From an uncultured Acidimicrobiia bacterium (lineage in GTDB: Bacteria > Acidobacteriota > Terriglobia > Versatilivoradales > Versatilivoraceae), in the NCBI GenBank assembly GCA_963786955.1, contig CAWBAT010000008.1:288001-352000 (forward strand): 64,000 nucleotides of DNA. The letters run 5' to 3'. The first letter of the stretch is position 1, and each line of letters begins with the position of its first letter. This document shows positions 1,175 to 53,043 of this stretch, piece by piece. A program made the position numbers and the translations under genes. The notes under the pieces are model-generated. The model was not told the origin of the DNA. It did no database searches and saw only the letters and a list, made by a program, of their open reading frames with translations.

Positions 1175-1613
1175 TCTCACGGAGACACGGAGGCACGGAG
1201 AACGCTTTGTAGGTCTCCATTGATGATTCGAGTAATTCCTTCCTTCATCAAGGCCTCTCCAAAATTCAAAAGGTATCCCAACTTCAAACCGGTCAAACGG
1301 AGGTAGGTTAGCAGTTGCTTTTTATGGGCTGGATTGACCCTCTCCACCGATTTCAGTTCCACGATCACTTTCCCCTCCACCACCAGATCGGCTCGAAATC
1401 CTTCTTCGAACTGATCATCCTCAAATTCGATCGGCACTGCAACTTGGCGTTGGACGGAGAGCCCTCGCTTTTCCAGTTGCCGGGCTAACGTCACTTCGTA
1501 CACCGTTTCCAGCAATCCAGGCCCGAGGGCTTGATGCAGATGGATTGCACAATCAACAATTACAGTCCCGATTTCGTTTTCATTCATCTCCGTGTCTCAG
1601 TGTCTCCGTGAGA
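1175..1613. repeat. 27-bp inverted repeats made of 8-mer units (CACGGAGA) bracketing the GxxExxY gene
   Basis: 1175-1201 tctcacggagacacggaggcacggaga vs 1587-1613 tctccgtgtctcagtgtctccgtgaga; 2 mismatches as an inverted repeat. Confidence 0.9.
1177..1587 (-). CDS. GxxExxY protein (PD-(D/E)xK-like)
   Basis: 136 aa with LGPGLLETVYE, RADLVVE, IVELKSVE, QLLTYL, GYLLNFG. Confidence 0.92.
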   Translation of the reverse strand: MNENEIGTVIVDCAIHLHQALGPGLLETVYEVTLARQLEKRGLSVQRQVAVPIEFEDDQFEEGFRADLVVEGKVIVELKSVERVNPAHKKQLLTYLRLTGLKLGYLLNFGEALMKEGITRIINGDLQSVLRASVSP

Positions 1614-1788
1614 GATATGGCTTTGGCTGAACCAATGATTAACAGGCAATATTGCCTTGATAATACGACAATAATTGGATTTTCGGGCAGTTTTGCCCTT
1701 TACCCATTATCAACCAAATTGTGTGCCTATTCTGGTACAACATGCTATGGCTGTCCTCTACAATTGTCAACGGAACAAACTCCTGGAG

Positions 1789-2931
1789 TTATAGAACTGG
1801 TGGTTCTTCGAACCAATCGGTTCGGTCCAACGAAACTATAGGCTCGTCGTCCTTACCATCCAGCGTATCCCGCCAATGTTGGAGCTGAGCGACTTTAGCG
1901 GGGATGGCCTGTTTGGAGGCACACACACGTTGGAAGGGAGTCTGAGGCGAATCATAGATCCGTTTTAGTTTCGAGCCGACTCGAATCTTGCGTCGCAATT
2001 TCACCGAGGGGAGGAACAAGTTTTGAAACAACCGCAGGGGGTGGGAGTAGAGATCGTTGAGAGCCTCCAAGGCGGTGGGAGAATCATAACGCTGGTAGCC
2101 TAACAGGCGACGCACGTGAGTCCAGTTCTTTTGCTCGATGTGAGCATTGTCATCTTTCTTGTAAGGACGGCCACGAGTGAATTGGATCTCGAGGGCCTGA
2201 CAATAGCGATAGAGATGAGCATTGATAAATTCCGAGCCGTTGTCGGAGTCAATGCCCAGCAGTTTAAACGGTAACGCTTGACGGATGGTTTCCATGGCGC
2301 AACGAACTCCTTCTTGCCCTTTGCCTAGCACGGCACGCGTCTCGACCCAGGTGGTGTGGATGTCGGTGAGGTTCAGCGAATGACAGCAGTCGCCGGAGGC
2401 AGCGCTGCCGGCATGCGAGACCAGATCGACTTCGGTGAAGCCGGGTTGGTGAACGTCCCAGTTGTCGGTCTTGATGGGAATGTGATGCTTTAACAACGTG
2501 CCCGGTTTGGTCCGGCCGTAGATCCTTTTTTTGAGTTGGCGCTTTTTGGGGCGGAGCCGATAATCGATGGTGCGGGGACTGAGGCAGAGCAGTTGCTGTT
2601 CCAGCCGGGGCGTCAAGTGAAAACGCTTCCGAGCCCAGGGCATCCACACCGGCAGCAGCGCCTTTAGACGGACCGACCAGGGATAGCCGGCCGCTTCCCA
2701 GATGGCACTGAGCACCGAGATTACCTGAGGCCCATAGCTCGCACGCCGTTTGCGGCGCCGCGGTGGCGACGGCCTGGGCGGAGGACCGTTGAGCAAGCGA
2801 ATGGCGTATTTGCGATGGTACCCACAATTGAGGCAGAACTCGTCGAGGATTGATTGCTTCGATCTCGACGACGCGGTGGAATATCTGTGATGAATCTTTC
2901 TCAAGTATTCCCATCTTGACTGTCGACTCAT
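1789..2931 (-). mobile_element. DDE integrase-core transposase (ISNCY-like), probably C-terminally truncated
   Basis: ILDEFC..GYHRKYAIRLL, EVDLVSH, IDSDNGSEFIN, RPYKKDDNAHIEQKN motifs. Confidence 0.85.
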
Positions 2932-3198
2932 GATGTAACCCCTTTCAATTAGGGTTTTATTGATAACAATCATGTAGAACTGACATCATATTGAACCCCC
3001 CGTTATATTGTTGGCCTTCTGGCATTGTGTTAAGCTTTCGTGATGTCGGTTAACGGAAAGAAGTTAGCCATCGTGTACTCAATCCAAAAAATTCCGGGAT
3101 CCAATTTTGCCGCGGACTAAGCCCATTGCTGAAACCTGCTCTCGGGTTCAGCAGAACCAGCCTAATTAATAGGCAGTCCCTAAACTCCAAGGAGGTGA

Positions 3199-5478
3199 AT
3201 GATGGGCGCACCCTTATCACGTCGCAACTTCTTGTGTTCCACTGCAGGGGGTATGGGCTTCGCTTGGGGCGGTGTGAATGTTCTGGGCGGCCCAAGCCTT
3301 GTTTCTGTTGGCGCTCAGAACTTGCGAGAAACTCCAGCCGGAAAAGAATTCATATACGGTGCCGCATTTTTCCGCCCACCGAATCCACCTCGAGCCCTAC
3401 GCCGGGAGATGCTGAAAACGATTGCCCAGGAGCACAAATTCAACATCATCCGCATTTATTTAGCCTGGGTCTATTGCAACCCTCAACCCGACAAGTTCAA
3501 CTTTGAAGAATTGAATGAAGTCATGAGTTATTGTGACGAATTCGGATTGAAAGTGCTCATGGGCGTCATTACCGAAGAAGCTCCCTATTGGCTGGAGCAA
3601 GCGCATCCGGAAGCCCGCTATGTGGATGCTAAAGGGAATGCTCAGCGGCTCGGGGACAGCAGTAATAATGTGAGCGGAGGATGGCCAGGAATGTGTCTGG
3701 ATTGGGAACCGGTACGCCAGGCGGCTGGCCGCTTCATCCGCGAAATGGCCAAAGTGGTGAGTCAACACCCCTCCATGTATGCCTACGATTGCTGGAACGA
3801 ACCGCACATTGAACCGGCCTGGGCACGGAATATTTGGGCTACTCCGCAAGAGAGGCTCTATTGTTACTGTGATCGAACCATTGCGGAGTTTCAACATTGG
3901 CTCGAACAGCACTACGGCACCCTCGATCAGTTGAACGAAGCCTGGGTGCGCCAATACCCGAATTGGAAGGCGATTGATCCGCCACGATTCATGTCCACTT
4001 ATTTAGACTGGCTGGATTGGCGGCGTTTCATCATTGAGCGCAGCACCGATGAAATGCGATTCCGTGCAGGTAATGTGAGAGCGGTGGATTCCAAGCATAT
4101 AGTTGAAGGCCACGCCGGCAGGAAGCATCCGCTCGACCCGGTCACCGAAGATGGCGTAAACGACTGGCGATTGGCGGAGTTGGTCGATGTCTGGGGCTTT
4201 TCTCATTTTCCTCGATGGGAAAGCTTGCCCGTCTTCTATGGGGCGGCCGTCATGGATCTGGCGCGATCCTGTTCCGGAAAAAAAGAATTCTGGATGACCG
4301 AATTACAGGGCGGTCATGGAAGCAACGGACTGTGGCGTAGTCCGCAGATGAGGGCTCAAGACATACGGCTCTGGAACTGGTTGGCGGTAGCGGCAGGCGC
4401 TAAAGGGATCATCTATTGGGCTTATCACGCTGAAGCTACGGGATCGGAAGCCACCGGATTTGGCCTGGTGGCTCGAGATGGTTCGGCAACCGAGCGGGTG
4501 CTTGAAGCGGCTGAAAATCACCGGCTCATTCAGATGTATTGGGATGTGATCCAAAGCCACCGACCCAAACCGGAGGTTGCCATTCTTGCGGATGAAGACA
4601 ACTTCATTTTGACGTATGCAATGAGTGGAACCGAAGTTCCCGCAACGGAGTCAATCCGCGGCTACTACAAGGCAATGTGGAGTAGTGATTTGTGGGTTGA
4701 TTTTATTGAGCCGAGAAGCCTGGGCAAAGCCAATTACAAAGTTCTCATTGTCCCTTGGCATCTGGTCGGAAAGAAGGAGACCTGTGAGGCTCTGGTTCGT
4801 TTTGTCGAAGCGGGCGGAACGCTCATTCTCGAGACAGCTTTTGGTATGTTTGATGAGCGCTGTTTTTACAACCCCGTCATCCCTCCATACGGGCTGGCGG
4901 AGTCTTTTGGCTACCGCGAAAAGGAAAGCTACTACGTGAATAATGGCGCCGTGACAAACCCTCTCTCTGTCCCTAAAAACCTTCCGCCATCGGACAAGGT
5001 ATACTATGAACCAGAAATCCAATTCTTGCATCCCATCACGACGAAAGTTAAGGCCCACACCTTCTTGACTCCCATTGTATTGAAGACAGCAACGCCAATG
5101 GGCAATTATGATGGGAAGACGGTGGCTGCCACAAAAAAAATAGGGAAGGGGGAGGTCTATTATTTCGGGACAAACCTGGGAGCCAGCATCGCAGGCGGTG
5201 ACAATAGAGGTATTGATTTATTGCAAGCCATCCTCGCACGGGTCGTTTCTCCGCCGGTTCGCGGCAACACGCTTCGACCCAGGCTCATTGAGGGCACTGG
5301 GCGCAGTCTGCTCGTCGTTGTCAACGACGCGGTAGAGGATCAAACCGGGACAATCCAACTTCCTTCGCAGTACCATCGGGCCAAAGACATTCATACCCAA
5401 CGTCCCGTTCAGATCGACCAACATGCCATCCGGCTCACTTTGCCCTATCAAAGCATTTCGATCTTACTGCTCGAGTAA
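3199..5478 (+). CDS. GH42-like beta-galactosidase with Tat signal
   Basis: SRRNFL twin-arginine signal; WNEP..CYC, MTELQGG; trimerisation-like C-terminal domain. Confidence 0.85.
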   Translation: MMGAPLSRRNFLCSTAGGMGFAWGGVNVLGGPSLVSVGAQNLRETPAGKEFIYGAAFFRPPNPPRALRREMLKTIAQEHKFNIIRIYLAWVYCNPQPDKFNFEELNEVMSYCDEFGLKVLMGVITEEAPYWLEQAHPEARYVDAKGNAQRLGDSSNNVSGGWPGMCLDWEPVRQAAGRFIREMAKVVSQHPSMYAYDCWNEPHIEPAWARNIWATPQERLYCYCDRTIAEFQHWLEQHYGTLDQLNEAWVRQYPNWKAIDPPRFMSTYLDWLDWRRFIIERSTDEMRFRAGNVRAVDSKHIVEGHAGRKHPLDPVTEDGVNDWRLAELVDVWGFSHFPRWESLPVFYGAAVMDLARSCSGKKEFWMTELQGGHGSNGLWRSPQMRAQDIRLWNWLAVAAGAKGIIYWAYHAEATGSEATGFGLVARDGSATERVLEAAENHRLIQMYWDVIQSHRPKPEVAILADEDNFILTYAMSGTEVPATESIRGYYKAMWSSDLWVDFIEPRSLGKANYKVLIVPWHLVGKKETCEALVRFVEAGGTLILETAFGMFDERCFYNPVIPPYGLAESFGYREKESYYVNNGAVTNPLSVPKNLPPSDKVYYEPEIQFLHPITTKVKAHTFLTPIVLKTATPMGNYDGKTVAATKKIGKGEVYYFGTNLGASIAGGDNRGIDLLQAILARVVSPPVRGNTLRPRLIEGTGRSLLVVVNDAVEDQTGTIQLPSQYHRAKDIHTQRPVQIDQHAIRLTLPYQSISILLLE

Positions 5479-5569
5479 TGGGGAATGAGATACGACTGAG
5501 TCTGACTTGTGGTGCAGGCGTCCCGCCTGCATCTTTTTTGAATAAGCAGGTATTGATTGGGAGGATTTC

Positions 5570-6340
5570 ATGTCTCGACGTGCCCTTTGGTTGGTGTTAT
5601 TTCTACTCTGCTTCGTCCACTTGGCTGCATTCGCCGGGGATTCTAAGCCCAGTCCGAAGCTCAAGGCTCTGCTCGTTACGGGCGGTGGATATCATGATTA
5701 CAAGAGCCTTGTGCCTCTGGTCACTGAAAAAATCAGTGAATTCGCGAATGTCGGGTGGGAAATTCAATGGGGGCCGGATGTCCTTGCCGACCCCAAGTTT
5801 GGACAGAATGCCGATGTAGTCGTCTATGACATGTGCTTTGACGAGACCATTCATCCTTCCATAGATAATGTTCTGAAGTTAACCTACGAAGGGAAGCCCA
5901 CCGTCGTCATTCATTGCGCCGTGCACAGCTTCAAGGAATCCGATGAGTGGCGCAGACTGGTCGGTGAAGTCTCTCGTGTTCACGACAAGTATCAAGCCTT
6001 TGCGGCGCAGAAGGTAGATCCCAATCATCCCGTACTGAAAAGTTTTCCTGACAATTGGCAAACGGCGGGAGATGAGCTATACCAGACCATTCAAATGGGC
6101 CCCGATTCACATAGTTTGCTCAAGGTAATCAGTCCCGCAACCGGAGCGGAGCACATCGTGTGCTGGACGAACCAATACGGGAAAGGAGTCGTTTTTGGGA
6201 CCACGCTAGGTCATAACATGACAACCGCGCAGCAGGCGGATTATCAGCGGCTTGTAGCCTATGGACTCCTTTGGGCATGTGGCAAGCTTAACGATCAGGG
6301 GAAACCATTACCAGGGTATGAGGGCGGTACAAATCACTGA
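5570..6340 (+). CDS. ThuA domain-containing secreted protein
   Basis: Signal peptide; LLVTGGGYHD, IHCAVHSF, DELY, GTTLGH. Confidence 0.85.
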   Translation: MSRRALWLVLFLLCFVHLAAFAGDSKPSPKLKALLVTGGGYHDYKSLVPLVTEKISEFANVGWEIQWGPDVLADPKFGQNADVVVYDMCFDETIHPSIDNVLKLTYEGKPTVVIHCAVHSFKESDEWRRLVGEVSRVHDKYQAFAAQKVDPNHPVLKSFPDNWQTAGDELYQTIQMGPDSHSLLKVISPATGAEHIVCWTNQYGKGVVFGTTLGHNMTTAQQADYQRLVAYGLLWACGKLNDQGKPLPGYEGGTNH

Positions 6341-6485
6341 GAAGATGACGATGGTAGGGTTTGAGATGAATCGGAAAAAGAAGGTCCAACGCAACTGAGT
6401 TGGGGTAAACTACCGCTTCCTTCTGTGCCCATTCCGGGCCAAACAGAGCTCGTCTAAATTTTACTATGTGACTGGAGAATGCTTC

Positions 6486-7332
6486 ATGCGTTTTGGCATC
6501 AACACATTTCTTTTTACTTCGCCGTTTACCAATGAAAGCACGAAGTACTTTAAAAATTTCAAAGCTTGGGGTTTTGAGTCGGTCGAGATTCCTCTCGAAC
6601 ATGAATCACACATCATTCCTTCGTATATTAAATCAGAGCTCAATCGACACGGTTTGGCATGCGGGGCTATGGGATGCGCCGTTGGCCCTGGGCGAGATCT
6701 TCGGGGCACGGTGGAGGAGCAACAAGCCTGTCTGGAATACATTCACAACATGATCGACATCGCCGTTAAACTCGACTGCCCAACCTTGGTCGGCCCGATC
6801 TATTCTTCAGTGGGCAGGGCGGAATTTGTCCCTGAGAAAGAGCGAAAGGCTCAGTGGAAGCTGGTGGTGGGGCATCTGAAGAAGATTTGCCGTTATGCGG
6901 AAAAAAAAGGAAAGAAAATGGCGCTGGAGCCTCTCAATCGCTTTGAAACTGACTTCATCAACACCTGCGATCAGGGACTTCAGATGGTAAAAGATGTGGG
7001 AAGCCCGGCTCTAGGCCTGCTTTTGGATACCTTCCATATGAATATCGAGGAGAAGAATACGGCGCGGGCCCTTCTTCGGGCAGGCAAGTCGCTCGTGCAT
7101 TTTCATGCCTGCGGCTGTGATCGGGGAACACCCGGCAGCGACCATATTGACTGGAAAAGCATCTGCAGCGGCCCTCAAGAAAATTGGCTATCAACGGGAC
7201 GTCGTCATCGAGTCCTTCACCCCCGATGTCAAAATCATCGCCAGAGCGGCTGCAATCTGGCGAACCATTGAGCCCAAAAAGAACGACATTGCCATCAAAG
7301 GGGTTCGGTTTCTCAAGAACGCCTTGAAATAA
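6486..7332 (+). CDS. Sugar phosphate isomerase/epimerase (D-tagatose/D-psicose 3-epimerase-like), one indel
   Basis: EPLNRFE, LDTFHMNIEE, DRGTPG; C-terminus (VVIESF) continues in ORF 7105-7332. Confidence 0.85.
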
Positions 7333-7385
7333 AGCTTTTCCAAAGTGCAGACGAGTGCTCAGTTGCATCATTCAATGGAATTGTT

Positions 7386-7440
7386 GTAGCCGGGGTCGCT
7401 GACCCCGGTCCATCTAGCCGGGACCAACGGTCCTGGCTAC
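7386..7440. repeat. REP doublet (GTAGCCGGGGTC family)
   Basis: GTAG-hairpin followed by an inverted hairpin ending CTAC; homologous to 8806-8858 and 40007-40059. Confidence 0.75.
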
Positions 7441-7512
7441 AGTTGGTTGTAGCCGGGCCCAATGGGGTCAGCGACAACACCGACTTCTGCGACTTAGCGT
7501 GAGGAGGTTTTC

Positions 7513-8748
7513 TTGAGCGGTCAGAGAGAAATTCAAATGTCTGAGCCCCCGCCTCAAATCAATCGGAATCGTCTGTATGTTGCAAGCTGTGTTTCCATGG
7601 TGACTCTGGCTTTGACGTTCACTGTTCGTGGGGACATTTTGGAAGATCTCAGCCGTCAGTTCCAGCTCAATAAAGAACAGTTAGGCTTGATTTCAGGAGC
7701 CGCGTTTTGGGGATTTGTGCTGGCGATTTTTACAGGTGGTCAGCTCTGTGATGTGTTGGGGATGGGGAGACTGATGTCATTAGCGTTTGTGGGCCATATG
7801 ATTGGAACTCTCACGATCATCCTGGCGGGAGGGTTCTGGCCACTCTGGGTAGGAACGCTGATTCTAGGTCTTGCCAACGGGTTCGTGGAAGGTGCCATCA
7901 ATCCTCTGATTTCAAGTGCGTATCCGGAGCACAAAACTGAGAAGCTCAACGCTTTGCATGCCTGGTTCCCGGGCGGCATTCTGCTCGGGGGCGTCGTGGT
8001 CTACGGACTAACGGCAATGGACGTTAGCTGGCAGGCGAAAATGGTGCTGATCCTCATCCCAACCTTAATCTACGGGCTTATGTTACGGGGCCAGCGTTTC
8101 CCGCTCACAGAGAGAGTTCAACATGGGATCCCAGTCCGGGAAATGTATAAACAGGCCCTTCGCCCTCAGTTTCTGGTTTGGGTATTTTGTATGTTCTTGA
8201 CGGCTTCCACTGAGTTGGGGCCGAACCAATGGATACCCAATATTTTGACAACTACTGCTCATCTGCCCGGAATACTGGTATTAGCTTGGATCAATGGAAT
8301 CATGACTGCAGGTCGCCTGTTTGCTGGCTCAGTTGTGAAACGGTTGTCACCCATCGCACTCTTGATTGCAGCAGCCTGCTTATCCGCCATAGGTCTGCTT
8401 GGGCTAAGCGTCTCCAGATCGCCTGCGCCTACCTTTATCACGGCGACTGTCTTTGCCATTGGTATCTGTTATTTCTGGCCGACGATGCTTGGAGTGACCT
8501 CGGAACGATTCCCGGCAGGCGGTGCTCTATTACTGGCAATTATTGGAGGCGCTGGAAATCTTTCGGTAGCGGTTGTCCTGCCAATCATGGGCCGGATTTA
8601 TGATGCGCAGGGACCGGAGGTTGTGCTCAGAGACGTCGTACTACTGCCCCTCATTCTGATTGCTGTTTTCAGCGCAATTTGGTTGCACGACCGGTCTCTA
8701 GGCGGTTACCGGATCATGAAACTTTCACCAAAAATTTCCGAAGAGTAA
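7513..8748 (+). CDS. MFS transporter
   Basis: About 12 hydrophobic segments; GAGGAGG RBS; motif-A-like GQLCDVLGMG. Confidence 0.88.
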   Translation: MSGQREIQMSEPPPQINRNRLYVASCVSMVTLALTFTVRGDILEDLSRQFQLNKEQLGLISGAAFWGFVLAIFTGGQLCDVLGMGRLMSLAFVGHMIGTLTIILAGGFWPLWVGTLILGLANGFVEGAINPLISSAYPEHKTEKLNALHAWFPGGILLGGVVVYGLTAMDVSWQAKMVLILIPTLIYGLMLRGQRFPLTERVQHGIPVREMYKQALRPQFLVWVFCMFLTASTELGPNQWIPNILTTTAHLPGILVLAWINGIMTAGRLFAGSVVKRLSPIALLIAAACLSAIGLLGLSVSRSPAPTFITATVFAIGICYFWPTMLGVTSERFPAGGALLLAIIGGAGNLSVAVVLPIMGRIYDAQGPEVVLRDVVLLPLILIAVFSAIWLHDRSLGGYRIMKLSPKISEE

Positions 8749-8805
8749 ATCCACCTCGTCATCTGCTAGCCTTGTGCTAAGTTGCACAAATTCACGATAA
8801 CTGTT

Positions 8806-8858
8806 GTAACCGGGGTCGTGGACCCCGGCCCAGGGCCGGCCTCACCGAGGCCGGCTAC
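8806..8858. repeat. REP doublet (GTAGCCGGGGTC family)
   Basis: gtaaccggggtcgtggaccccgg...gccggcctcaccgaggccggctac. Confidence 0.75.
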
Positions 8859-9023
8859 AGCAGCAACGCCGACGGCGCGAGACAAACGATTTCCATGGAT
8901 AGAGCTTTCACGAATTGCAAAGCAAGAACCGGAGTGCATCTGAGAATCAGACGGTTTAGAGTGGCGGCTGATTTGAGATTCTTGGATTGCATTTTTTGGA
9001 GTTAGACTGTGGGAGGATTGGTT

Positions 9024-10130: not shown

Positions 10131-10191
10131 AGCGGGAAAATCGAGACCCAAGCCAACAGATGGAGCGGGTGCGTAGGACCTCTAAAAAAGA

Positions 10192-10273
10192 CTCATTTGT
10201 CATTGTTGACTGTTCATTTCCTTTCCATTGAGAAGCTTAAATGAAAAATGGTAATTGACCACTGGCAAATAGG
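10192..10273. repeat. Gene-less inverted heptamer arrays
   Basis: tcatttg-tcattgt-..-tcatttc then aaatgaa-aaatggt-aattgac-cactggc-aaatagg. Confidence 0.6.
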
Positions 10274-12020: not shown

Positions 12021-12061
12021 CACCTTAGTGGACACCTCAAGTTTTGCGGGGAAAGCCTGGA

Positions 12062-32442: not shown

Positions 32443-33023
32443 GACAACTCCGGGGTGAAACAAGAAAGTCTCCCAACCGTGAACCGCTCAAAGTTACACG
32501 GAAAGGAGACTTTTAGTGAACAATGTTGAAAGCCTAAGCCATACCAAGTGGGAATGCAAATACCACATTGTGTTTATCCCGAAGTATCGCAAGAAAGCGT
32601 TGTACGGTGCACTTCGCCAACAATTGGGGGATTTACTAAGGCAGTTGGCGATGCAACGAGAGAGCCGGATCGAAGAAGGCCATTTGATGCGGGACCATGT
32701 GCATATGCTCGTGTCCATTCCGCCAAAGTACTCCGTATCCCAGGTGGTTGGATACCTGAAGGGAAAAGTGCCATCCACATTGCTCGGACATTCTTGGGAA
32801 AGCCGAGAAACTTCACGGGTGAGAGTTTCTGGGCGAGAGGATACTTCGTTTCGACAGTAGGAAGAGATGAGCAGCAAATCCGCGAGTACATAAAAAAGCA
32901 AGACCAGGAAGACCAGCGAATAGATCAACAAACGATGTTCAGCAAGTAGCCACTTTGAGTGGCTCCAAACATAAACCGCTTTGAGCGGTTCACAAAATCA
33001 AGCCTCCGGCTTTGCCGGAGGTC
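32443..33023 (+). mobile_element. tnpA: IS200/IS605 family element with tnpA only (CDS 32516-32949, one indel)
   Basis: YHIVFIPKYR, DHVH (HUH), FWARGYFVSTVG, YI; right-end hairpin cctccggctttgccggagg; 15-bp inverted repeat 32479-32493/32979-32993. Confidence 0.9.
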
Positions 33024-41801: not shown

Positions 41802-41821
41802 TCGCTTCTTAAGAGACGAAT

Positions 41822-43663: not shown

Positions 43664-43754
43664 CAGTGGGACGAATCCGGCCGAGGGTCTTGAAGCGCCA
43701 AGGGCGCGAGCGGCCCGTTAGGAACAGCCACACTTCGGAATCCAACGAGAAAGG

Positions 43755-44508
43755 CTATTGGCCGAGATGCGCAATGGCACTTCGCAGCGGAGCACTCGAA
43801 ATCTGGATCAATCCTGCTAAGGGATCATACATTTCCAGGATCAAGAAAATCACACCCGAGACGGATAAGGCGCATAGAAACAAGGTAGCGATGACAGTTG
43901 CGTTCGGAGGGGTGTGCAGACCGAAGCTGATGAAGGTAATGGACAGGCGAGAAAACGATCACGACCAGGAGAGGCAAGGACATCGAGCTACCTGTTGTGC
44001 GAACATCAACATGCGTCTTTGTCCGAGTCAAACGCCATATTTAACGCGCGGGCCTGAAGGGAGCGTTGAGTATCGGTCGTGGGTGAGAGTTCCTGAATCA
44101 TGTCATAGAGGTATTCGGACTTGGACTTCGCCGGGTCCAATTGGGAATGTTTTGAACGGTCTTCCGGCCATATCCGTTCGAGCGTACTGGACAACGCTGC
44201 CGCGCAAGAGATCACGGACTTCCTTCGCTTCAGGCCCATAATGCGCCAGAACGCGATCCAGAGATGATCTCGGCAGACATCTCCGTCATTTCGCGGCTTT
44301 GCGTGTCATAAGAGCCTTTTGCCGAAGCAACCAGCAGACCCAGAACAAGGCCAGTCATCGCCGCGATCGTTCCCATCCCCAGCTTTACAAGATCTCTAGA
44401 AGAGGTATTCAGATGATCCTCGGGCAGAACAGTGCGAAGAAAAACACCAAACAAAGACCCTCCAAAAACGCAAACGAATACAATCAAGCTAATTGCAATG
44501 GGATTCAT
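43755..44508 (-). CDS. DUF4239-like membrane protein (indels)
   Basis: LPEDHL..SRDLVKLGMG, LVLGLLVASAKGSY; C-terminal ISSAPLR. Confidence 0.7.
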
Positions 44509-44784
44509 AATCCAACTCTCCCGAAGACCGTTTGGTCCCTTTCTGCTTTTAAGGCGCCAACCCAATGATTATCGCTACGAGTGCGCAGGTGCTGCGCAGC
44601 AGATCCCCCCTTTTAGCACTAATGGATTTGATTCTCAATCCAATTACAAAGTTTCAGAAGCCCTTGTTGTAAATTGCCCCACTAGGGTCGGCGGAAGGTC
44701 AGCGGCCTCTCTAGCGCCGGCCGGAGTCGGCGACCCATGAGCGCTAACTTTATAAGGCTTTCCTCACCTGCCGCCGGAAGAACG

Positions 44785-45195
44785 AAACGCCAAGAGCGCC
44801 AAGCACGCCAAGAAAAGAGGATACATTTTGGTTAGCCGTCTGATCTTATCCTACCCGTAGTTCTTCCGGATGGTTTCTGGCTACCCGCTGGATGTTGTCG
44901 CGCAACCATATCACGTTCCAACAGACACCAATTAGTCGATTCGCATGTCGATGCGGTCAACCGGCCTCAATAAGCACCCCTTCAAATTCTAGTCTGGTGG
45001 AACAGCGAGTTTGCATTCGACCCGGTGGCGGCGTCTTTGGAGCTCGTGTGCCAGACAAGCCTGATAGGCCGATTCCAGCAGCCCGGGCCCCAAGGCACGA
45101 GGCACTCTTGAGTGCAGCGTCAACAATATCCTGAGCTACTTCGTCGGCGGACTTGAAGGCGCCTACTCTTGGCGAACTTTGCGTTCTTGGCGTTT
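44785..45195 (-). pseudogene. Decayed GxxExxY gene bracketed by inverted 9-mer arrays
   Basis: Minus-strand fragments DEVAQDIVDAALK / VPRALGPGLLESAYQACLAHEL / LEFEGVLIEAG / RIDM; arrays at 44785-44813 and 45167-45195. Confidence 0.8.
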
Positions 45196-45351
45196 CCCAA
45201 TTCTAGGAGTCATTTGCTCAACTGAAGGATCCCGCAATGCATCAATCATCCAAGCTTAGGGTAGCGCTTATGGGCCAGCGACCCCCGCTACAGCACGACT
45301 CGCTAACATTGCGTTGGCTTTTAATGGGACTTTAAGTAGAGACTCTCGCCC

Positions 45352-46357
45352 TTATTTCAACTCAAAATCAGAAGGTCTCATGCCCCGTTTGAACTTACCG
45401 AACCCGAAGTAGGTTGGGATGTACTCACCCACGTAATTCACGTCACTCTTTGCAGGAATTTGGGTTTCCAGGCCCAGCCGCCCAATAACAGGCATTCACC
45501 AGCAGGCGGCGTAATCCTTCGCTCTCCAAATCAACGGCAGCCCCAATGGTAGAGCAGATCACCCGTGAGGTTTTTCCGGTCTCACCGGTGTAATTTCGGA
45601 CCCAGATGAGAGGCATCATCGGATCATTTTTCGTTCCGGTTACAGGCTTGTCCAACGGATGCATTCCTTCCAGAACCTGGCCATAGACCAGCACGACCGC
45701 ATCGGCAGTAAGGTGACTGACACGGTAAACATCGGTGGGTCCCCAAATGTCGTCGACTCCTCTTAGAATCGGGTTATTTTTCTGGGCCTCGTTAACAATG
45801 CCTCGAGTGCTTTCTTTACCATGAATCCCATGATGGGCGATCCAGGTTTCTCCGAGAACCTGCTGGCCGAATCCTCCCGGCCATTCTTTATTCGCCAGTC
45901 ATAACGCGCATAAGCACTTTGTTTGTTTTTTTCAAACGCAAACGCATGGGTGGCTGTACGAATTCCCAGGATGGGTTTGCCCGAGTTCACGAAGTCAGCG
46001 ATGTATTTCATCTCCCGATCGGCGGGCTCCCGAAAGCGGGCAAAAATGACCATCATGTCAGCACTTTGCAAGGATTCTAATCCCGGCAGGTTTGTCGGGT
46101 TGTTAGGGATCGATGGTCCCGTCCGTGGGATCAAGCGCGAAGAGCACCGTACATTTGAATCCGTGTCGAATCGCAAGAATTTGGGCCAACATGGGCATCG
46201 CTTCTTCTGACCGGTACTCTTCATCTCCCGTCACGAACACGATGTGCTTTCCCTTCCCGGGGCCCTGGTTTCCTTCATATACGACCCGATCCGCAGCACC
46301 GATCTCGCGCTGAAAGATGAAAAAGAGAATGATCAGTGCTGGGAGAAGTTTCATCAT
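45352..46357 (-). CDS. ThuA-like domain protein (indels)
   Basis: [34 protein letters not shown]. Confidence 0.8.
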
Positions 46358-46465
46358 TGCCTCATCAATTCGAGCCAACGCCTCTATTCCTACCTTAGCG
46401 TGGAAGAAAACGCATACTCTGGAAGACGGGACGAACCAGGCGTACAGCGACGCGAGTTGCAGTTG

Positions 46466-46522
46466 GTAGGGCGATTTCGCCGAAACCGCCGAATGACGGC
46501 GCGCACGGCGTGCGCGCCCTAC
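46466..46522. repeat. REP doublet (GTAGGGCG family)
   Basis: gtagggcgatttcgccgaaaccgcc...ggcgcgcacggcgtgcgcgccctac. Confidence 0.75.
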
Positions 46523-46820
46523 CAAAAGCGGAAGGCGGGCGTGTACAACATGGGTTTCTGGCGTCGCAGGCTCGGTGACCCAATTCACCTCCGCCGGAGG
46601 GGCGTTAGGGGTGGGTTCTGGTTTAAATATCGGCTCCAAGATTGGGGTTTTATCAAAGCCTCAAGCTCAGCCAGTGCGGGTCAATAGCCTTCCTGGCAGA
46701 TTCTCGACGGGAAGAATTTTCTATCCGTTCACAAGCACATTGGCTATCCTAGACCGAGGCGTCTATCACCCGTTTCTGACTTGCGTGCCTTCAATGAAAT
46801 GAACAGGTATTTGAGCCCCC

Positions 46821-47479
46821 ATGAACTTCTATCTCATCCAACTTCGAAAGAATTCGGTCGTTTTATACGCCGAAGACGAAAGAAGTTCGCTGGAGAGCCC
46901 GGATTCAACCAAGAGCCTGGTGGACACGTGGGTCAATTGGCTTGCCCGCCGGGGTACATGGGCCGCTCGAATATTTCAAGAACCTGACGATTGTTGTCCG
47001 CGACTATTACAATCGATTAGAATACAAAATAGACCCGATGGAACGTGTGTTCAAGCGCATGCGCCACGCTACCGAAATCAACCTCCATTTTGCATCGACC
47101 CTAACTGAAACACGGGCAGCCGAAATGCTGGAGCAACTGTCGGGGCAGAGAGCGCAATAAACATCTTTTCTGGTTTGGAGTGGATTTTGTCGTGGCCATC
47201 GTTGCGATCTTGCTATCGCCCATTCTGATTCCAATTCCGGGACCGAACATTTTTGTTTACTATCCAGGCCTCCGTACCATTAGCCATTTTCGTGCGTGGC
47301 GCGGCGCCCTGCGTGGTCGGAGACTGAAACCCAGGTTGTACTTCCCTCGACTAGAGATCGCGGATATCGAGGCGACCCTAAAGCAGGGCCGCGAGCAGGT
47401 AGATTTTGAACAGGTCCGGCAGTTGGCTAAAACGATGGGATTAGAACAATTGCCCCATTTCCTCCAAAGATTCACTTAG
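46821..47479 (+). CDS. Hypothetical protein resembling the mitochondrial K+/H+ exchange-related family (indels)
   Basis: Three consecutive ORF pieces; PIPGPNIFVYY..LRTISHFRAWRG motif. Confidence 0.45.
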
Positions 47480-47523
47480 AGGAAATGCCGAATGCCGAAT
47501 GACGAATGCCGAGTGAAAGATGA

Positions 47524-47709
47524 AACCACGGGGAACACGGAGGACGCAGAGAACTATTTACTATTTGTTATCGTTTATTGGTTATTTACGATATGCAAAA
47601 ACGCGGACGCATTGCATTAGGCCGTGGAATATATCGAAATAATAAATAGACAATCGCAAATCGAAAATAGCCAATAACAAATTCTTCTCTCGTCCCTGTG
47701 TTCCCGGTA
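47524..47709. repeat. Nested palindromic element, copy 1 (9-mer inverted repeats outside, 7-mer arrays inside)
   Basis: Homologous direct copy at 48741-48930. Confidence 0.8.
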
Positions 47710-47721
47710 GTCTAATTCTGA

Positions 47722-48681
47722 ATGACTATGATTTCTGAATCTGCCAAGAGAGTTTTACGCATTGAAGCGGAGGCTATCACCGATCTCATTGATCGAATTG
47801 ATGTGCGATTTGAAAGTGCTGTCGATGCATTATTTCATTGCCATGGCCGTGTCGTTGTTACGGGTATTGGGAAATCTGGCATCATCTGCAAGAAAATAGC
47901 CGCCACATTGGCGAGTACCGGGACTCCTGCCTTTTTCCTGCACCCCACCGAAGCGCATCACGGCGATCTTGGCATGATTGTCAAGGGCGATATCGTGTTG
48001 CTGATATCCAATAGTGGTGAAACCGAGGAACTGATCCGGCTCCTGAAGACTCTGAAGCGGCTTGGAATCTTCTTAATCGCGATGGTCGGTAATCCTCAAT
48101 CTTCTTTGGCCCGGCACAGCGACATTGTGCTCGATGTCAGCATCCGTCAAGAGGCTTGTCCTCTCGGGTTGGCGCCGACTGCCAGTACGACCGCAGCGTT
48201 AGCCCTCGGTGACGCTTTGGCCATTGCGTTGTATGAAAAACGGGGCTTTAAAGAAGAGAATTTCGCCAGTCTTCATCCCGGTGGAATAGACAAGAGACTC
48301 ATGACCGTAGAGAAACTCATGCACGTGGAGATGCGATACCCGCTGTGGATGTGGACACTTCGATGCAAGCTGTGATCCTATGAAATTTCCGAAAAAGGGA
48401 TGGGGGTCACAGCCGTCATGCAGGATGGGTCGCGGGTTGCAGGAATTATTACAGACGGCGACTTGCGGCGACTCTTACAGAAAGACGTGAATTTTCTAAA
48501 GAAGAAAGCCGGGGAGTGTATGCACTTGAAGCCGCTGACCATCGAACCACAGTCATTGGCAACTGCGGCTCTACAAATCATGGAAGAGCGAAAAATTACT
48601 TCGCTGCTGGTAACGACGAAAGAGGGGAAACTCGAAGGAATCATCCACATTCATGACTTGTGGAAAACGCAGATGTTCTGA
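47722..48681 (+). CDS. kdsD: KpsF/GutQ family arabinose-5-phosphate isomerase (one indel)
   Basis: GIGKSG, HGDLG, SNSGET, APTASTT; CBS pair in the following ORF. Confidence 0.9.
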
Positions 48682-48740
48682 AGATTGCGGAATGTGGAAT
48701 TCAGATTGCGGATAGATTCAGGCGGGTCTCATTAAAAGAA

Positions 48741-48930
48741 AACCGCGGGGATACACGGAGGATGTGAGAGCTATTTACGATTTGTTATCGTTTATTTGTT
48801 ATTTACGATCTGTTAAAAGGCGGACTCACGGCAATAGCCCGTTGGTTATATCCAAATAATAAATAGACGATCGCAAATCGAAAATAGCAAATATCTAATA
48901 CTGCTGTCTCTCCCCGTGTTCCCCGTGGTT
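48741..48930. repeat. Nested palindromic element, copy 2
   Basis: aaccgcggggatacacggag...ctatttacgatttgttatcgtttatttg...aaataataaatagacgatcgcaaatcgaaaatagc...ccccgtgttccccgtggtt. Confidence 0.8.
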
Positions 48931-48975
48931 AGAATATTTTTAATCGCCATTCGGCATTCGTCAAACGGCATTCTT

Positions 48976-49723
48976 CTATTCCCCCTCAACCAGTGCCTTG
49001 GCATAATCGCGGTTCATACGCGCAATAAACTCGACCGAAATTTCTTTCGGGCAAACGGCTTCACAGGAGCTGATATTGGTACAATTGCCAAAACCGGCTT
49101 CATCCATGGCCTTCACCATCTTGAGCACCCGGCTATTTCGTTCTGACTTGTCCCTGCGGGAGCTGACCCAGATGGGAAACCTTGGCTGCCACGAACAGCA
49201 TGGCAGAGGCGTTCTTGCAAGCGGCAACGCAGGCTCCACATCCAATACAGGCGGCCGCGTCCATGGATTTTTCAGCGGCAGGTCTGGGCACTGGAATCGT
49301 GTTCGCTTCGGGCGCCTGACCGGTTGAGACGGAGACAAACCCTCCCGCTTCCATAATATGATCAAAAGCGCTCCGATCCACGACGAGGTCTTTGACTACA
49401 GGGAATGCCCCGGCGCGCCAGGGTTCAATGGTGAGGCGATCGCCATCCTTGAAATGTCTCATATGGAGCTGGCATACCGTTGTTCTCCGATGTCCTCCAT
49501 GCGGAATCCCGTTGATGACCATTGAGCAGGAACCGCAAATTCCTTCTCGACAATCCGAATCGAAAGCAATCGGCTCTACGCCCTTGCCTGTCAAGTCTTC
49601 GTTGACAACATCTAGCATCTCCAAGAACGACATCTCCGGGATCACATTGGGAGCCTGATACTCCACAAACTTTCCCGGTGTCTTCGAATTCTTCTGGCGC
49701 CAGACTCTTAGCGTAAGTTTCAT
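48976..49723 (-). CDS. sdhB: Succinate dehydrogenase/fumarate reductase iron-sulfur subunit (one indel)
   Basis: [32 protein letters not shown]. Confidence 0.93.
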
Positions 49724-49892
49724 ACGAGAATCATCCTTGAAGCGATAACATCTGCGACACTAAGTACTCATTTCATCAATTACAGTGACATCAGCTTGGA
49801 GCTGCCTGTGCGCGCGGGTGGACGGGCGCTCCGACGCACGCTTGAACGCGCGCGGAGCGCGCGTTCCATCTTCCATGGAGGGCGAATCATCG

Positions 49893-51806
49893 TTACTTAT
49901 AGCTCCGCTGACTCATCTTCAATTCTTCATAAAGCAATGGCTCTTTGTGCATCAAGGGTGAATGGCCTTCACCCTGGTATTCCCACGCCGAGACATGCGC
50001 ATAGGCATCATCATTTCGGAGGGCTTCTCCATCACTCGTCTGAAATTCCTCGCGGAAGTGCCCCCCGCACGACTCGGCACGCGTCAGAGCGTCGAGGCAG
50101 AGCAACTCAGCGAACTCTAAGAAATCAGCCACCCGCCCGGCTTTTTCAATGGACTGGTTCAGATTGGCATCCTCTCCCAACACCGTCACGTTTTCCCAAA
50201 ACTCTTGTCGCAGCGCCGGAATCTTCTGCAAGACTTCTTTCAAGCCTTTCTCGTTCCGTGCCATCCCGCAATGTTCCCACATCAATTTTCCCAGCTCTCG
50301 ATGAAATGAGCCCACCGTTCGTTTCCCTTTGATGGACAAGAATCGCTGAATCTTGGCGCTGACCTCACTTTCAATCCGTTTAAATTCAGCATGAGTTTCT
50401 GGAATTCTATTCTGTGGGATAGAGCCAAAAAAATTCCCAAGGGTGTAAGGAAGGATGAAATAACCATCCGCCAAGCCCTGCATCAGCGCGCTGGCTCCCA
50501 ACCGGTTGGCGCCATGATCAGAAAAATTGGCTTCTCCAAGGACGAAGAGTCCAGGGATATTACTCATCAGATCATAATCAACCCACAGGCCGCCCATGGT
50601 GTAATGCACGGCCGGGTAAATCCGCATGGGTGTCTTGTAAGCATCCTCACCGGTGATCCGTTCATACATCTCAAAGAGATTGCCATAGCGCTCCCGGATC
50701 GTATGTTCGCCAAGGCGCTGAATGGCCTCGGCAAAGTCCAGATACACGCCCTTCCCGCCGGGACCTACACCACGCCCTTCGTCACAGACCTCTTTCGCAG
50801 CTCTCGAGGAAATGTCACGCGGGGCAAGATTGCCATAACTGGGGTATTTCCGCTCCAGATAATAATCCCGTTCGCTCTCTGGAATCTGTTGGGCAGGGCG
50901 GGTATCCCCTGACTTCTTGGGTACCCAGACCCGCCCGTCATTTCTCAAGGACTCGGACATGAGAGTCAGTTTTGATTGGTACTCTCCGCTGGCCGGGATG
51001 CAGGTGGGATGAATCTGCGTATAGCATGGGTTCGCAAAGGCGGCGCCCCGCTTGTAAGCACGAAACGTGGCCGTGACATTACACCCTCCCGCATTGGTCG
51101 AAAGATAGAACACATTGCCATAGCCGCCCGTCGCCAGCACGACGGCGTCCGCTGAATGCGAACGAATCTCCCCGGTGACGAGGTTTCGGACCACAATCCC
51201 TTTGGCCACACCATCCACCACCACCAGATCTAACATCTCGGTCATCGGAAAAAGCTGGCAATTCCCCAACCCCAGCTGGCGGGCGAGAGCTTGATAGGCT
51301 CCCAGCAAGAGCTGTTGTCCGGTCTGACCGCGAGCGTAGAAGGTTCGGGAAACCTGCGCACCACCAAATGAACGATTCGACAGCAAGCCTCCGTATTCCC
51401 GGGCAAAGGGTACTCCCTGGGCAACGCATTGGTCGATGATGGCATTGCTGGTCTGAGCCAGCCGATAGACATTACCTTCGCGAGCCCGGAAGTCTCCGCC
51501 TTTGATCGTGTCGTAAAACAGGCGATAAATACTGTCCCCGTCGTTGGGATAGTTTTTAGCAGCATTGATGCCTCCTTGAGCTGCAATGCTGTGAGCCCGC
51601 CGAGGCGAGTCATGAAACGTAAACACCTGGACCTTGTAGCCCAATTCTGCCAGAGAAGCGGCGGCTGAAGATCCAGCCAGGCCAGTTCCAACAACGATCA
51701 CATCAAACTTGCGTTTATTGGATGGATTCACCAGCTTCATTCCCAGGCGATAGCGATCCCATTTGCTGGCAAGGGGACCGGAGGGAGTTTTAGAGTCCAG
51801 TTTCAT
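49893..51806 (-). CDS. sdhA: Succinate dehydrogenase/fumarate reductase flavoprotein
   Basis: [28 protein letters not shown]. Confidence 0.95.
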
Positions 51807-51845
51807 GATTGTTGCATCGCTATTGAGAGCTCATTTTTCGTCCTG

Positions 51846-52520
51846 CTATTTGACGTATCCAAGCAAAACTGCCAGTGGCATTGAAGAATTCCCCACGAAG
51901 ATGACAAGGGCGGAGACCTGCGAGAGGCGGCAGATCAAGTCTTCCGTTCTTTTGCTCTTCAATCCCAATGATTGAAAGGCGCTGCTGACCCCATGACTCA
52001 AGTGCAGGCAGAGCAACCCCATCGCCAAGATGTAAAAAAAGGTGACGCCGGGAGAAGAGAACCCCTCGACTGCCATTCGATACACGTCATGTCTCCCCTT
52101 CGAGTCCTCCAAGTGGAGATACTCGGGATTGGTGACTCCAAGCGTAAATTGCATCAAATGATAGGCCACAAATGAAAATATGACCAATCCGCTGATGAGC
52201 ACAGTCCTGGAGGCAAGATTGGCATAAGGAGGTTTGCTGTTTGCGTAACGAACGGGACGCGCCCGGCGATTCTGCAAAGCTAACTGAATCCCGGTCACGA
52301 TATGAAAGACCACAATGACGAGCAAGATGAGGCGGACCGTCCAAAGCAATCCCGGTTTGGATTTTAAAAACGCCCCATAAGCGTTCAATGACTCCGGTCC
52401 GAGAAAAACTTGCAGATTCCCCAGCATATGGCCAATGACAAAGAGGAATAAGAACACCCCTGAAATGGCCATGAGATATTTTCTGGTGAGGGAAGAACTC
52501 GCAATTAGACCAATGCTCAT
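51846..52520 (-). CDS. sdhC: Succinate dehydrogenase cytochrome b subunit
   Basis: Five TM helices with heme His residues; operon position. Confidence 0.92.
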   Translation of the reverse strand: MSIGLIASSSLTRKYLMAISGVFLFLFVIGHMLGNLQVFLGPESLNAYGAFLKSKPGLLWTVRLILLVIVVFHIVTGIQLALQNRRARPVRYANSKPPYANLASRTVLISGLVIFSFVAYHLMQFTLGVTNPEYLHLEDSKGRHDVYRMAVEGFSSPGVTFFYILAMGLLCLHLSHGVSSAFQSLGLKSKRTEDLICRLSQVSALVIFVGNSSMPLAVLLGYVK

Positions 52521-52561
52521 CTGGATAAATCAGTAGAAATCATTGCAGGGCGAAAAGATTT

Positions 52562-53043
52562 CTCATCGTTCATTTTTCAGTTGTCATTTCCCATTTCGAG
52601 TTTAGTCGTACTTCATTCTAGACTTCAGTGTCTTAACCGATGATGTGACAATTTTAGACAGCTGAGTTGTTTCATCAATGATGTTTGCCATCAATGCCGA
52701 GCTAACAAGTCCACCCTTATTTACGATTTTTAACCAAACGCTGGTTTCGTTCAATTCTTTTAAGACAATCCCCAATTTGTGTATGAAATCCGCGTTACTT
52801 TCAGCGGCTCTCGCTTCACTGTAATTTGCCGCAGGAGAGGTCCCGGAACGTAATATCTGATTTGCCACATGTCTACCTGCTGGAGTCTTAGGAAGGCTAT
52901 TGGAAAGCTTTATGATCCTGACAGCAAATTCAACAAGCCGCGCTTCCAGCTCGTCCGCTTTCTGTTGACTCTGATTCATTGAACCGATACTGGTCCATCA
53001 TCTGTCCAAAATCAAAAATGACAAATGATCAATGAACAATGAA
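52562..53043. repeat. Inverted heptamer arrays bracketing the four-helix-bundle gene
   Basis: 52562-52597 tcatcgt-tcatttt-tcagttg-tcatttc-ccatttc; 53009-53043 aaatcaa-aaatgac-aaatgat-caatgaa-caatgaa. Confidence 0.8.
52602..52979 (-). CDS. Four helix bundle protein (23S rRNA IVP/Avd-like family)
   Basis: QILRSGTSPAANYSEA, DFIHKLGIVLKELNETSVWL. Confidence 0.92.
   Translation of the reverse strand: MNQSQQKADELEARLVEFAVRIIKLSNSLPKTPAGRHVANQILRSGTSPAANYSEARAAESNADFIHKLGIVLKELNETSVWLKIVNKGGLVSSALMANIIDETTQLSKIVTSSVKTLKSRMKYD

Follow-up and report, generated by a model that had tools for sequence, protein, structure and literature searches.

What are the small genes that, at several places in one bacterial genome, stand singly between two inverted arrays of short periodic repeats? 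The question is raised by a stretch of 64,000 nucleotides (the window, C8:288001-352000) in the 5.65-Mb genome of a soil or sediment bacterium (9 contigs, 51% G+C). An earlier note on this DNA had named six such places and had seen in them an undescribed class of micro-elements, built around one gene of either of two families: GxxExxY (TIGR04256 / PF13366) or the four-helix-bundle family (4HB; TIGR02436 / PF05635). The observed cassette structures are confirmed as real, five of the six places being solid and one, at 10192-10273, weak, and the interpretation that the note gave them is partly supported. We consider it probable, with some reserve, that the elements are selfish gene cassettes of the intervening-sequence (IVS) type known from 23S rRNA, that is, promoterless units of about 0.45 kb with one small open reading frame (ORF) between inverted arms. 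In what follows, G000 is the present genome, G001 and G002 are congeners, and G010 and G012 belong to other genera; G002 is syntenic with the window at an identity of 82-90%.

The layout is seen most clearly in the two cassettes of the window whose gene is intact:

1587-1613, minus strand: 5′ arm of GxxExxY cassette 1, with CACGGAGA-type units, the last abutting the start codon; predicted to pair with 1175-1201 in both the minimum-free-energy (MFE) and the centroid fold
1177-1587, minus strand: intact GxxExxY / PD-(D/E)xK ORF of 136 aa, with profile matches, invariant residues, a structure model and a dN/dS estimate
1175-1201, minus strand: 3′ arm of cassette 1, overlapping the last codons and the stop
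53008-53043, minus strand: 5′ heptamer arm of the 4HB cassette, reading AATGNNN on the plus strand, about 10 nt from the stop (53053-53055) of an upstream open frame
52602-52979, minus strand: intact 4HB ORF of 125 aa (TIGR02436 / PF05635)
52562-52600, minus strand: 3′ arm of the 4HB cassette, likewise of heptamers, with the Sdh_cyt gene starting 42 nt downstream

At 1175-1613, where the earlier note had described an intact GxxExxY gene in inverted 8-mer arrays, the arms consist of three copies of CACGGAGA and of its complement (period 8 and 3.0 copies each in Tandem Repeats Finder, TRF; inverted-repeat score 44). The enclosed ORF matches TIGR04256 with 140.3 bits (cut-off 35; E 3e-41) over profile positions 3-116 of 116, and PF13366 with 140.1 bits (cut-off 22). 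Across 34 sequences G24, E27, Y30, D67, E77 and K79 are invariant, so that the GxxExxY motif and the D...ExK residues of the PD-(D/E)xK nucleases are both intact. The structure model shows an alpha-beta nuclease core (pLDDT 89) whose nearest folds are Cas4, lambda-exonuclease-like proteins and Hjc, every one weaker than E 1e-3. A search of solved structures with the single sequence gave no match, and with the GxxExxY profile one weak match (2f8l_A, E 0.0086) over a 58-residue stretch. On the model, the GxxExxY protein is a minimal PD-(D/E)xK fold and a predicted nuclease. The gene has a dN/dS of 0.057 against an 83%-identical copy in G012, and homology to that copy spans 1175-1638, its left limit coinciding with the outer edge of the 3′ arm. 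For two cassettes compared with copies in other genomes, homology stops at the outer edges of the arms or at most 25 nt away from them, and the flanks are unrelated.

The 4HB gene that the note had placed in inverted 7-mer arrays at 52562-53043 is likewise borne out, both by its heptamer arms, which pair as inverted repeats at 52563-52589 and 53016-53042, and by an ORF that matches TIGR02436 with 91.2 bits (cut-off 24; E 5e-26), PF05635 with 65.2 bits (cut-off 33.8) and PDB chain 2rld_A at E 1.2e-19. The cassette fills the gap between the tail of the open frame that ends at 53053 and the Sdh_cyt (succinate dehydrogenase cytochrome b) gene, all three lying on the minus strand; a match to myo-inositol-1-phosphate synthase (53147-53704) lies just upstream of that frame. 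The G001 ortholog of the 4HB protein is 78% identical (dN 0.13, dS saturated). Judged from substitution patterns, the cassette ORFs are under purifying selection.

The association of arms and families holds across the genome, which has 20 matches to TIGR04256 and 10 to TIGR02436, nearly all of them, by eye, flanked by short-period arrays whose unit varies by locus. Flanks were scored by the best local alignment of the 140 nt upstream with the reverse complement of the 140 nt downstream, a score above 21 being significant; they were counted from the ends of the profile match, as arms overlap ORF ends. By this measure, among genes of full length, 9 of 13 in the GxxExxY family and 4 of 6 in the 4HB family are flanked (13/19), against 4 of 600 random intervals of 340 bp. 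Some low-scoring genes have arms beyond the 140-nt frame, as at C6:465972, whose partner arm was found at a 529-nt spacer in a genome-wide census of inverted repeats (8-mer seeds, distance up to 3 kb). This census gave 564 clusters, with both arms periodic in 66, the period being 7 in 41, 9 in 14, 6 in 4, 8 in 3, 10 in 3 and 5 in 1; inverted repeats scoring at least 15 number 81 in contig C8 and 1 in its third-order Markov copy. Seventeen periodic pairs have a spacer of gene size (251-700 nt); 14 of them enclose a GxxExxY or 4HB gene or fragment, and a third family occurs in none. The pairs with spacers of up to 250 nt (29/66) are gene-less, with a family fragment in two, and those with spacers above 700 nt (20/66) mostly join arms of neighbouring elements. 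A strict lag-match search returned just 42 arrays genome-wide and missed the named ones because their units are degenerate.

The same association is found in other phyla. The sample comprises the best 80 loci for each of three query proteins (240 in all) in a one-genome-per-species collection; these are relatives of the queries at 38-96% identity and not a random draw of the families. Counts take in the 227 loci that have both flanks, and controls are same-length intervals shifted within the same loci. Flank scores exceed 21 in 64 of 76 loci of GxxExxY clade 1, which contains the relatives of the window protein (controls 17/263), in 68 of 74 of GxxExxY clade 2, 28% identical to clade 1 (controls 4/145), and in 69 of 77 4HB loci (controls 9/283). 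Pooled, 201 of 227 loci are flanked against 30 of 691 controls, so that the enrichment of inverted arrays around both families, which the earlier note had proposed to look for, is found here and across phyla. The sample covers Planctomycetota, Verrucomicrobiota, Proteobacteria, Chloroflexota, Bacteroidota, Cyanobacteria, Cloacimonadota and others; the 4HB loci nearest to the window protein come from metagenome-assembled genomes labelled Terriglobia / Acidobacteriota. In Planctomycetota, Verrucomicrobiota, Proteobacteria, Chloroflexota and others, proteins of 60-87% identity are accompanied by the same arms. The cassette design is specific to the GxxExxY and 4HB families and spread across phyla.

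Arm type tracks protein family. In 4HB arms the pooled lag identity reaches 0.71 and 0.70 at lags 7 and 14, respectively, with about 0.3 elsewhere, and 7 is the best period in 53 of 69 loci; the heptamer itself varies by clade: the relatives nearest to the window protein have ATTTGTC, Nostoc has ATAATTC and Bacteroidota have AATTGAT. The pooled profile of GxxExxY clade 1 peaks at lag 8 (0.46), and that of clade 2 at lag 10 (0.46), with 0.37 at lag 9. Period calls for single loci (lag identity of at least 0.6) leave 42 of 54 GxxExxY loci unassigned, so the pooled profile and a count of the core motif were used instead; the arms without a call have just 2-3 units with an irregular spacing of 8, 9 or 10. 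The suggestion of family-specific periods therefore stands for 4HB, with 7, and in a looser form for GxxExxY, which keeps to 8-10 but has no one fixed period, either here or in relatives. What GxxExxY arms share is a core, CRCNRAK, in forms such as CACGGAG, CACAAAG, CGCCAAG, CACGAAG and CGCGAAT, after which come 1-3 free bases. The number of cores per 120-nt flank is 2.2-2.8 in either GxxExxY clade, 0.2 in the 4HB set and 0.3-0.4 among controls; upstream of the gene the core lies mainly on the sense strand (43 vs 19 and 52 vs 8 loci). In five cross-phylum GxxExxY pairs dS is saturated and the arms are still CTCTCACRRAGRCAC; the arms are thus kept at the level of sequence, beyond mere pairing.

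Between close relatives, the DNA itself shows gains, losses, internal deletions and nesting of cassettes and, in one case, an inversion. The clearest instance in the window is the decayed GxxExxY gene that the earlier note had recognised in inverted 9-mer arrays at 44785-45195:

44666-45347, unstranded: 683-bp insert, absent at the orthologous G002 site, with GCCCTT at both ends here and once in G002
44728-45275, minus strand: decayed copy (548-bp element) of a CGCCAAGNN GxxExxY cassette family of about 636 bp, with terminal inverted repeats, each about 15 nt long, lying outside the arrays
44784-44813, minus strand: 3′ 9-mer arm, unit CGCCAAGNN, period 9
44989-45126, minus strand: GxxExxY ORF fragment of 45 aa (33.7 bits, just below the 35-bit TIGR04256 cut-off)
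45167-45196, minus strand: 5′ 9-mer arm, unit CGCCAAGNN, period 9

The CGCCAAGNN family has nine dispersed copies in the genome, three long and six internally deleted, with three kinds of deletion; relative to the longer copies, that of the window has lost 92 bp internally. A 252-nt contig (X2) of a sediment DNA metagenome joins 44727 to 45276, skipping the family element exactly and keeping an outer piece that resembles repetitive extragenic palindromes (REPs), from which it follows that the insert is two-layered. This contig is a single record of depth 8, with 112 nt on its shorter side and 6 differences, and comes from a relative at about 95% identity. Elsewhere, the GxxExxY cassette C3:250961 (L276 1455-2201) is absent at the orthologous G002 site, where 12 unrelated bases stand in place of 747 bp. 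The presence/absence polymorphism at orthologous sites that the note had predicted is thus observed, in G002 at 44666-45347 and at L276 and in the metagenome contig, and the intact, decayed, gene-less and nested states that it had described do coexist, the internal-deletion derivatives being shown directly by the nine-copy family. For L277 and L280 the flanks are not conserved in relatives, and homologs of the cassettes are known elsewhere only. At the site of cassette 1, G001 and G002 carry two other genes, so that it does not count as a clean empty site; about 1.6 kb from the shared gene, a gene-less CACGGAGA pair is present in G001. Some GxxExxY cassettes (C6:1001600-1002160 of G000, which is L277 1400-1960, and L065, L077, L084 and L100) have as each flank a complete small hairpin (arm, 8-nt loop, arm), the gene thus lying between two direct hairpin copies; this variant recurs in other phyla.

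The surroundings of the CGCCAAGNN family bring in the main rival explanation, according to which the cassettes are non-autonomous DNA elements with hairpin ends, mobilised in trans by the Y1 transposases (IS200/RAYT-type) of the genome or by some other enzyme of the host; the arms would be the substrate of the transposase, and the small proteins cargo of some different benefit to element or host. The genome abounds in a REP-like 59-bp doublet, two mini-hairpins bracketed by GYTGTAGCC...GGCTACARC, present in the window at about 44708-44727 and 45276-45299; one 11-mer taken from it occurs 70 times, with about 2.7 expected, and there are 87 inverted pairs, the largest group having a 35-nt spacer. 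Every CGCCAAGNN copy is set inside one mini-hairpin of such a doublet, at differing positions, and carries, beyond its arrays, 15-nt terminal repeats of its own. There are 21 Y1_Tnp matches in the genome, one of which, split into two frames, lies at 32546-32901 of the window. Trans mobilisation fits this REP-embedded family, which reached nine copies though all three long ones are frameshifted. It fits the remaining cassettes less well: the periodic arms are unlike REP units, single-copy cassettes end at the arrays themselves, and a host transposase leaves unexplained why arm type follows family and clade across phyla. We regard it as rather unlikely for the class.

A second alternative dispenses with movement and takes the arms as processing or stability stems of small operon genes, vertically inherited and acting in RNA only, with differences between genomes due to ordinary deletions. 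Its attraction lies in the strong co-orientation with neighbours and the tight packing between genes. In the cross-phylum sample 30 of 45 GxxExxY and 48 of 62 4HB loci are co-oriented with both neighbours, and 1 and 2, respectively, are opposite to both; in this genome the figures are 14 of 18 and none. Median distances from the arms of 4HB cassettes to the next ORF are 8 nt on the upstream side and 14 nt on the downstream side. In predicted folds of the sense RNA, MFE and centroid alike, the terminal stem is made by the two arms, with z -4.9 for GxxExxY cassette 1 and z -1.6 for the A+T-rich 4HB cassette. 4HB cassettes are present at four of four orthologous G002 sites examined and at two or more in G001, one of those in G002 having three frame-breaking indels, and the nested hairpins beside a SIS-domain gene of the window are kept in all three congeners. 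Vertical inheritance agrees poorly with 60-87% identical proteins carrying the same arms in several phyla, with a dispersed nine-copy family and its deletion derivatives, and with homology to copies in other genomes that stops at or near the arms amid unrelated flanks; the sense-strand G-U bias expected of an RNA stem is also weak. The idea of the earlier note that the arms pair in RNA to loop out the ORF keeps the backing of the predicted folds but not that of a clear G-U bias. On balance an RNA-only origin appears improbable.

In comparison with G000 and G001, G002 has one 4HB cassette flipped between its arms, with the ORF intact both ways, as would be expected if the arms were recombination sites that switch a small gene on or off by turning it with or against the transcription of its operon. 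The case stands alone: only 3 of 107 cross-phylum cassettes are opposite to both neighbours, an invertase gene lies inside no cassette, and no mixed orientation was seen among the metagenome contigs, which did not cover that 4HB cassette. Invertible gene switches are accordingly very improbable. That the arrays are generic intergenic short-period repeats (slippage-prone simple sequence repeats, SSRs, terminators or REP-like sequences) lying near small genes by chance might be suggested by the many gene-less arrays and hairpins (29/66 periodic pairs with spacers of up to 250 nt) and by the over-representation of heptamer SSRs in several bacteria, with convergent pairs in Xanthomonas, of which PMC4692102 gives an account, but it is contradicted by the enrichment (13/19 vs 4/600, 14/17 gene-sized pairs, 201/227 vs 30/691) and is hardly credible.

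The gene-less and nested forms in the window are the following:

10192-10273, unstranded: weak gene-less heptamer pair of 4HB arm type, probably decayed, with CATT-phased and AATG-phased runs visible
47484-47512, plus strand: AATGCCG heptamer array, locally unpaired, with its complement at 48944-48973
47524-47709, unstranded: gene-less nested hairpin, with outer arms of GxxExxY type (CACGGRGNN) and inner arms of 4HB type (ATTTRYY), z -3.96
48686-48712, plus strand: degenerate AATGYGG array, predicted to pair with 48944-48973
48741-48930, unstranded: second nested hairpin copy, inside the AATGYGG/CGGCATT pair and thus with three levels, z -6.98
48944-48973, minus strand: CGGCATT heptamer array, predicted to pair with 48686-48712 outside the 9-mer arms

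The two elements that the note had called chimeric, 9-mer outside and 7-mer inside, do fold as nested hairpins in prediction; that at 47524-47709 is present in G002 and, as a variant, in G001. The supposed empty 7-mer pair at 10192-10273 fared less well: its phased runs are there, but it was missed by the inverted-repeat census and folds no better than shuffles (z +0.56, +0.88). The site is not alignable in G001 or G002, the latter having an unrelated ORF of about 250 codons there. In the genome, gene-less hairpins are built of the units that gene-bearing cassettes have (GATGCGR, AAGGTCN, AATGNNC, GAGTTCR, CGCCAAGNN, CACAAAGG and CGCGGATNNN); the exception is GCAGAAG, for which no gene-bearing cassette was found in the genome.

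Other features of the neighbourhood are of separate kinds. The SIS-domain (KpsF/GutQ-like) gene between the nested hairpins (47722-48681) has a stop at 48375, and as metagenome contigs show single-base indels relative to the window at 48323 and 48380, its interruption may be an assembly error. At 46419-46667 the window has 249 bp where G002 has 59 bp; the segment holds a palindrome, GGCGCGCACGGCGTGCGCGCC, that recurs elsewhere in the genome, and two metagenome DNA runs have one contig each with a 103-bp skip and 27 other letters between. The G+C-rich insert of about 65-100 bp at 49781-49879 is not at this site in G002 or G001; copies at 85-90% identity occur at many places in G010 and G012, which marks it as a small dispersed element of another kind. 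A tandem repeat with a 130-bp unit (2.9 copies, 98% matches, TRF score 752) occupies 58328-58710. Next to cassette 1, positions 1858-2956 form a 1.1-kb repeat that recurs, in full or in part and at 99-100% identity, on C3, C4 and C6 and is absent at the orthologous G002 site; its ORF (1789-2973, minus strand, 394 aa) has a weak match to the rve integrase core (22.7 bits, under the cut-off), and the repeat looks like a recently active insertion sequence (IS). [quoted passage not shown] Two 4HB cassettes of G000 (C5:10300-13800 and C4:381200-384200), with GATGCGR-type arms, have same-sized neighbours on both sides and dense further arrays, which looks like a segmental duplication carrying the cassette.

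To return to the reading that we favour, that of IVS-type selfish cassettes, its working could be pictured as follows. Each arm is made of three to six degenerate short units and the ORF encodes a GxxExxY protein of PD-(D/E)xK nuclease fold or a 4HB "23S IVS" protein. The cassette would be transcribed by read-through from the host operon and, by analogy with the 23S IVS, its arms would pair in the transcript into a long stem; RNase III could cut such a stem, and the insertion would for that reason be tolerated. Each protein may recognise the repeated units of its own arms, a proposal made because arm sequence is kept where synonymous sites are saturated, and the GxxExxY protein may serve spread or maintenance as a structure-specific nuclease. 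New copies would prefer existing hairpins, namely REP-like mini-hairpins, the loops of other cassettes and the tips of rRNA helices, and such landings would yield nested forms. Gene-less hairpins would be deletion derivatives or remnants.

Several observations weigh against this picture. The 4HB cassettes behave as old residents and not as active movers, and the 4HB protein is without a catalytic motif and hence makes no nuclease-driven element on its own. All three long CGCCAAGNN copies being frameshifted, no master copy is visible here; the shift that two of them have in common is real, but frameshifts found in one copy only, such as that of the long copy on C6 or those of the 4HB copy in G002, may be assembly errors. 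Given the place of this family in REP-like mini-hairpins and the 21 Y1_Tnp matches, its spread could be the work of another enzyme. The inverted cassette of G002, with its intact ORF, means that sense orientation is not obligatory. As regards the arms, the predicted stem of the window 4HB cassette barely beats shuffles (z -1.63), and mismatches between arms, read on the sense strand, are G-U-compatible or A-C in ratios of 63:50 and 68:48 (p 0.26 and 0.08), with transversions (153 and 148) above both; continuous pairing is therefore not tightly kept. Contigs from two RNA runs covered a small part of the stretch compared and no part of the 4HB cassette. Finally, CRCNRAK was derived from the same loci, which makes its enrichment over controls partly circular; this does not apply to its transfer to clade 2 or to its absence from 4HB flanks.

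A broader proposition, which we put forward tentatively, is that promoterless selfish cassettes form a ubiquitous class spanning phyla, with the 23S rRNA IVS as no more than its special case carried in rRNA, each protein reading the units of its own arms and the spread occurring at DNA level into pre-existing hairpins. Were this so, a 4HB oligomer would read a 7-nt register and the GxxExxY nuclease the CRCNRAK core at intervals of 8-10 nt; REP hairpins, the loops of other cassettes and rRNA helix tips would be the targets of spread; and decayed cassettes would be the source of much unexplained heptamer or short-period intergenic repeat in cyanobacteria, Xanthomonas, Bacteroidota, Acidobacteriota and others. 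PF05635 genes wedged in cas operons are mentioned in a 2013 survey. PF13366 and PF05635, which are among the largest small-protein families of unknown function, would gain a concrete context as cargo with family-specific arms, and rRNA IVSs, small genes wedged into operons and the excess of heptamer repeats in bacterial intergenic DNA would be connected. Annotators would gain a rule for spotting such inserts and their gene-less remnants, and cognate pairs of protein and arm would become available for binding and nuclease assays.

Among known systems, the integron gene cassette has one attC site 3′ of a promoterless ORF and resides next to an integrase gene and attI. It was rejected as a model on anatomy only, no integrase search having been made: the present elements have two arms per ORF and are dispersed singly between housekeeping genes. 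The accessory protein Avd of diversity-generating retroelements (DGRs) is a small four-helix-bundle protein related to PF05635. The 4HB cassette of the window differs from this setting in lying between the synthase-side open frame and the Sdh_cyt gene, and no further large ORF appears inside it in listings that reach about 100 nt around the cassette.

REPs and REPINs are palindromic intergenic elements that occur in a genome alongside a single-copy enzyme gene, the RAYT (Y1) transposase. REP-like doublets and 21 Y1_Tnp matches are found here too, and one cassette family sits inside REP-like hairpins; the proteins of the cassettes, however, do not belong to the Y1 transposases, the gene has an arm on either side and does not stand next to a repeat cluster, and the periodic arms have a type specific to each protein family. 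The likeness to MITEs and ISs consists in terminal inverted repeats and dispersed copies, longer ones bearing the ORF and others internally deleted (both in the CGCCAAGNN family only), in filled and empty orthologous sites, and in short direct repeats at junctions. GCCCTT stands on either side of the 683-bp insert and a direct repeat matching in 8 of 9 positions at the inner 548-bp element, and at L276 there are 12 unrelated bases in place of a repeat; this is too inconsistent to be called a target-site duplication. The cassettes differ further in that their arms are arrays of short periodic units and no single terminal repeat, in their strong sense orientation within operons, and in their coding content, the ORFs being only GxxExxY or 4HB, neither of which is a known transposase family.

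Heptamer SSRs, also termed short tandemly repeated repetitive sequences (STRRs), offer another point of contact: the Nostoc 4HB loci L155, L158 and L160 carry ATAATTC heptamer arms. Rehm et al. (2015; PMC4692102) describe tandem heptamers between genes, of which a Xanthomonas genome has 70-75 convergent (inverted) pairs; they treat the arrays as G-quadruplex or SSR sequences and report no connection with a gene family enclosed by them. In the literature searched, from which most subscription journals fell outside, no paper was found that ties GxxExxY or non-rRNA 4HB genes to inverted periodic arrays.

The closest known relative of the cassettes is the ORF-bearing 23S rRNA IVS. That of Coxiella burnetii, as described by Warrier et al. 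(2016; PMC4990558), is a 428-nt unit with an S23p (four-helix-bundle) ORF and a 28-bp terminal inverted-repeat stem cut by RNase III; tandem GACAGAT heptamers, varying in number by strain, lie upstream of the ORF. There it is termed selfish, with a proposed origin by transposition, and IVSs are cited also for Leptospira, Brucella and Xanthomonas. As the ORF family, the terminal inverted-repeat stem and the tandem heptamers are shared, to call the elements an undescribed class, as the earlier note did, was too strong. The correspondence extends to the size of about 0.43 kb, to the PF05635 S23p ORF placed in the loop with heptamers beside it, and to the proneness of this ORF to decay; here too the arms are predicted, in MFE and centroid folds, to pair into an enclosing terminal stem. 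Cutting by RNase III is reported in Coxiella and would apply here by analogy. The cassettes differ in lying between protein-coding genes and not in rRNA: the single 23S match of this genome (C5:357151-360105, 2955 nt against 2925 model positions) has no IVS, and none of the 10 TIGR02436 matches falls there. They also differ in having multi-copy, deleted, nested and inverted derivatives, and in carrying, within the same layout and with an arm motif of its own, a second and unrelated cargo, the GxxExxY protein of predicted nuclease fold.

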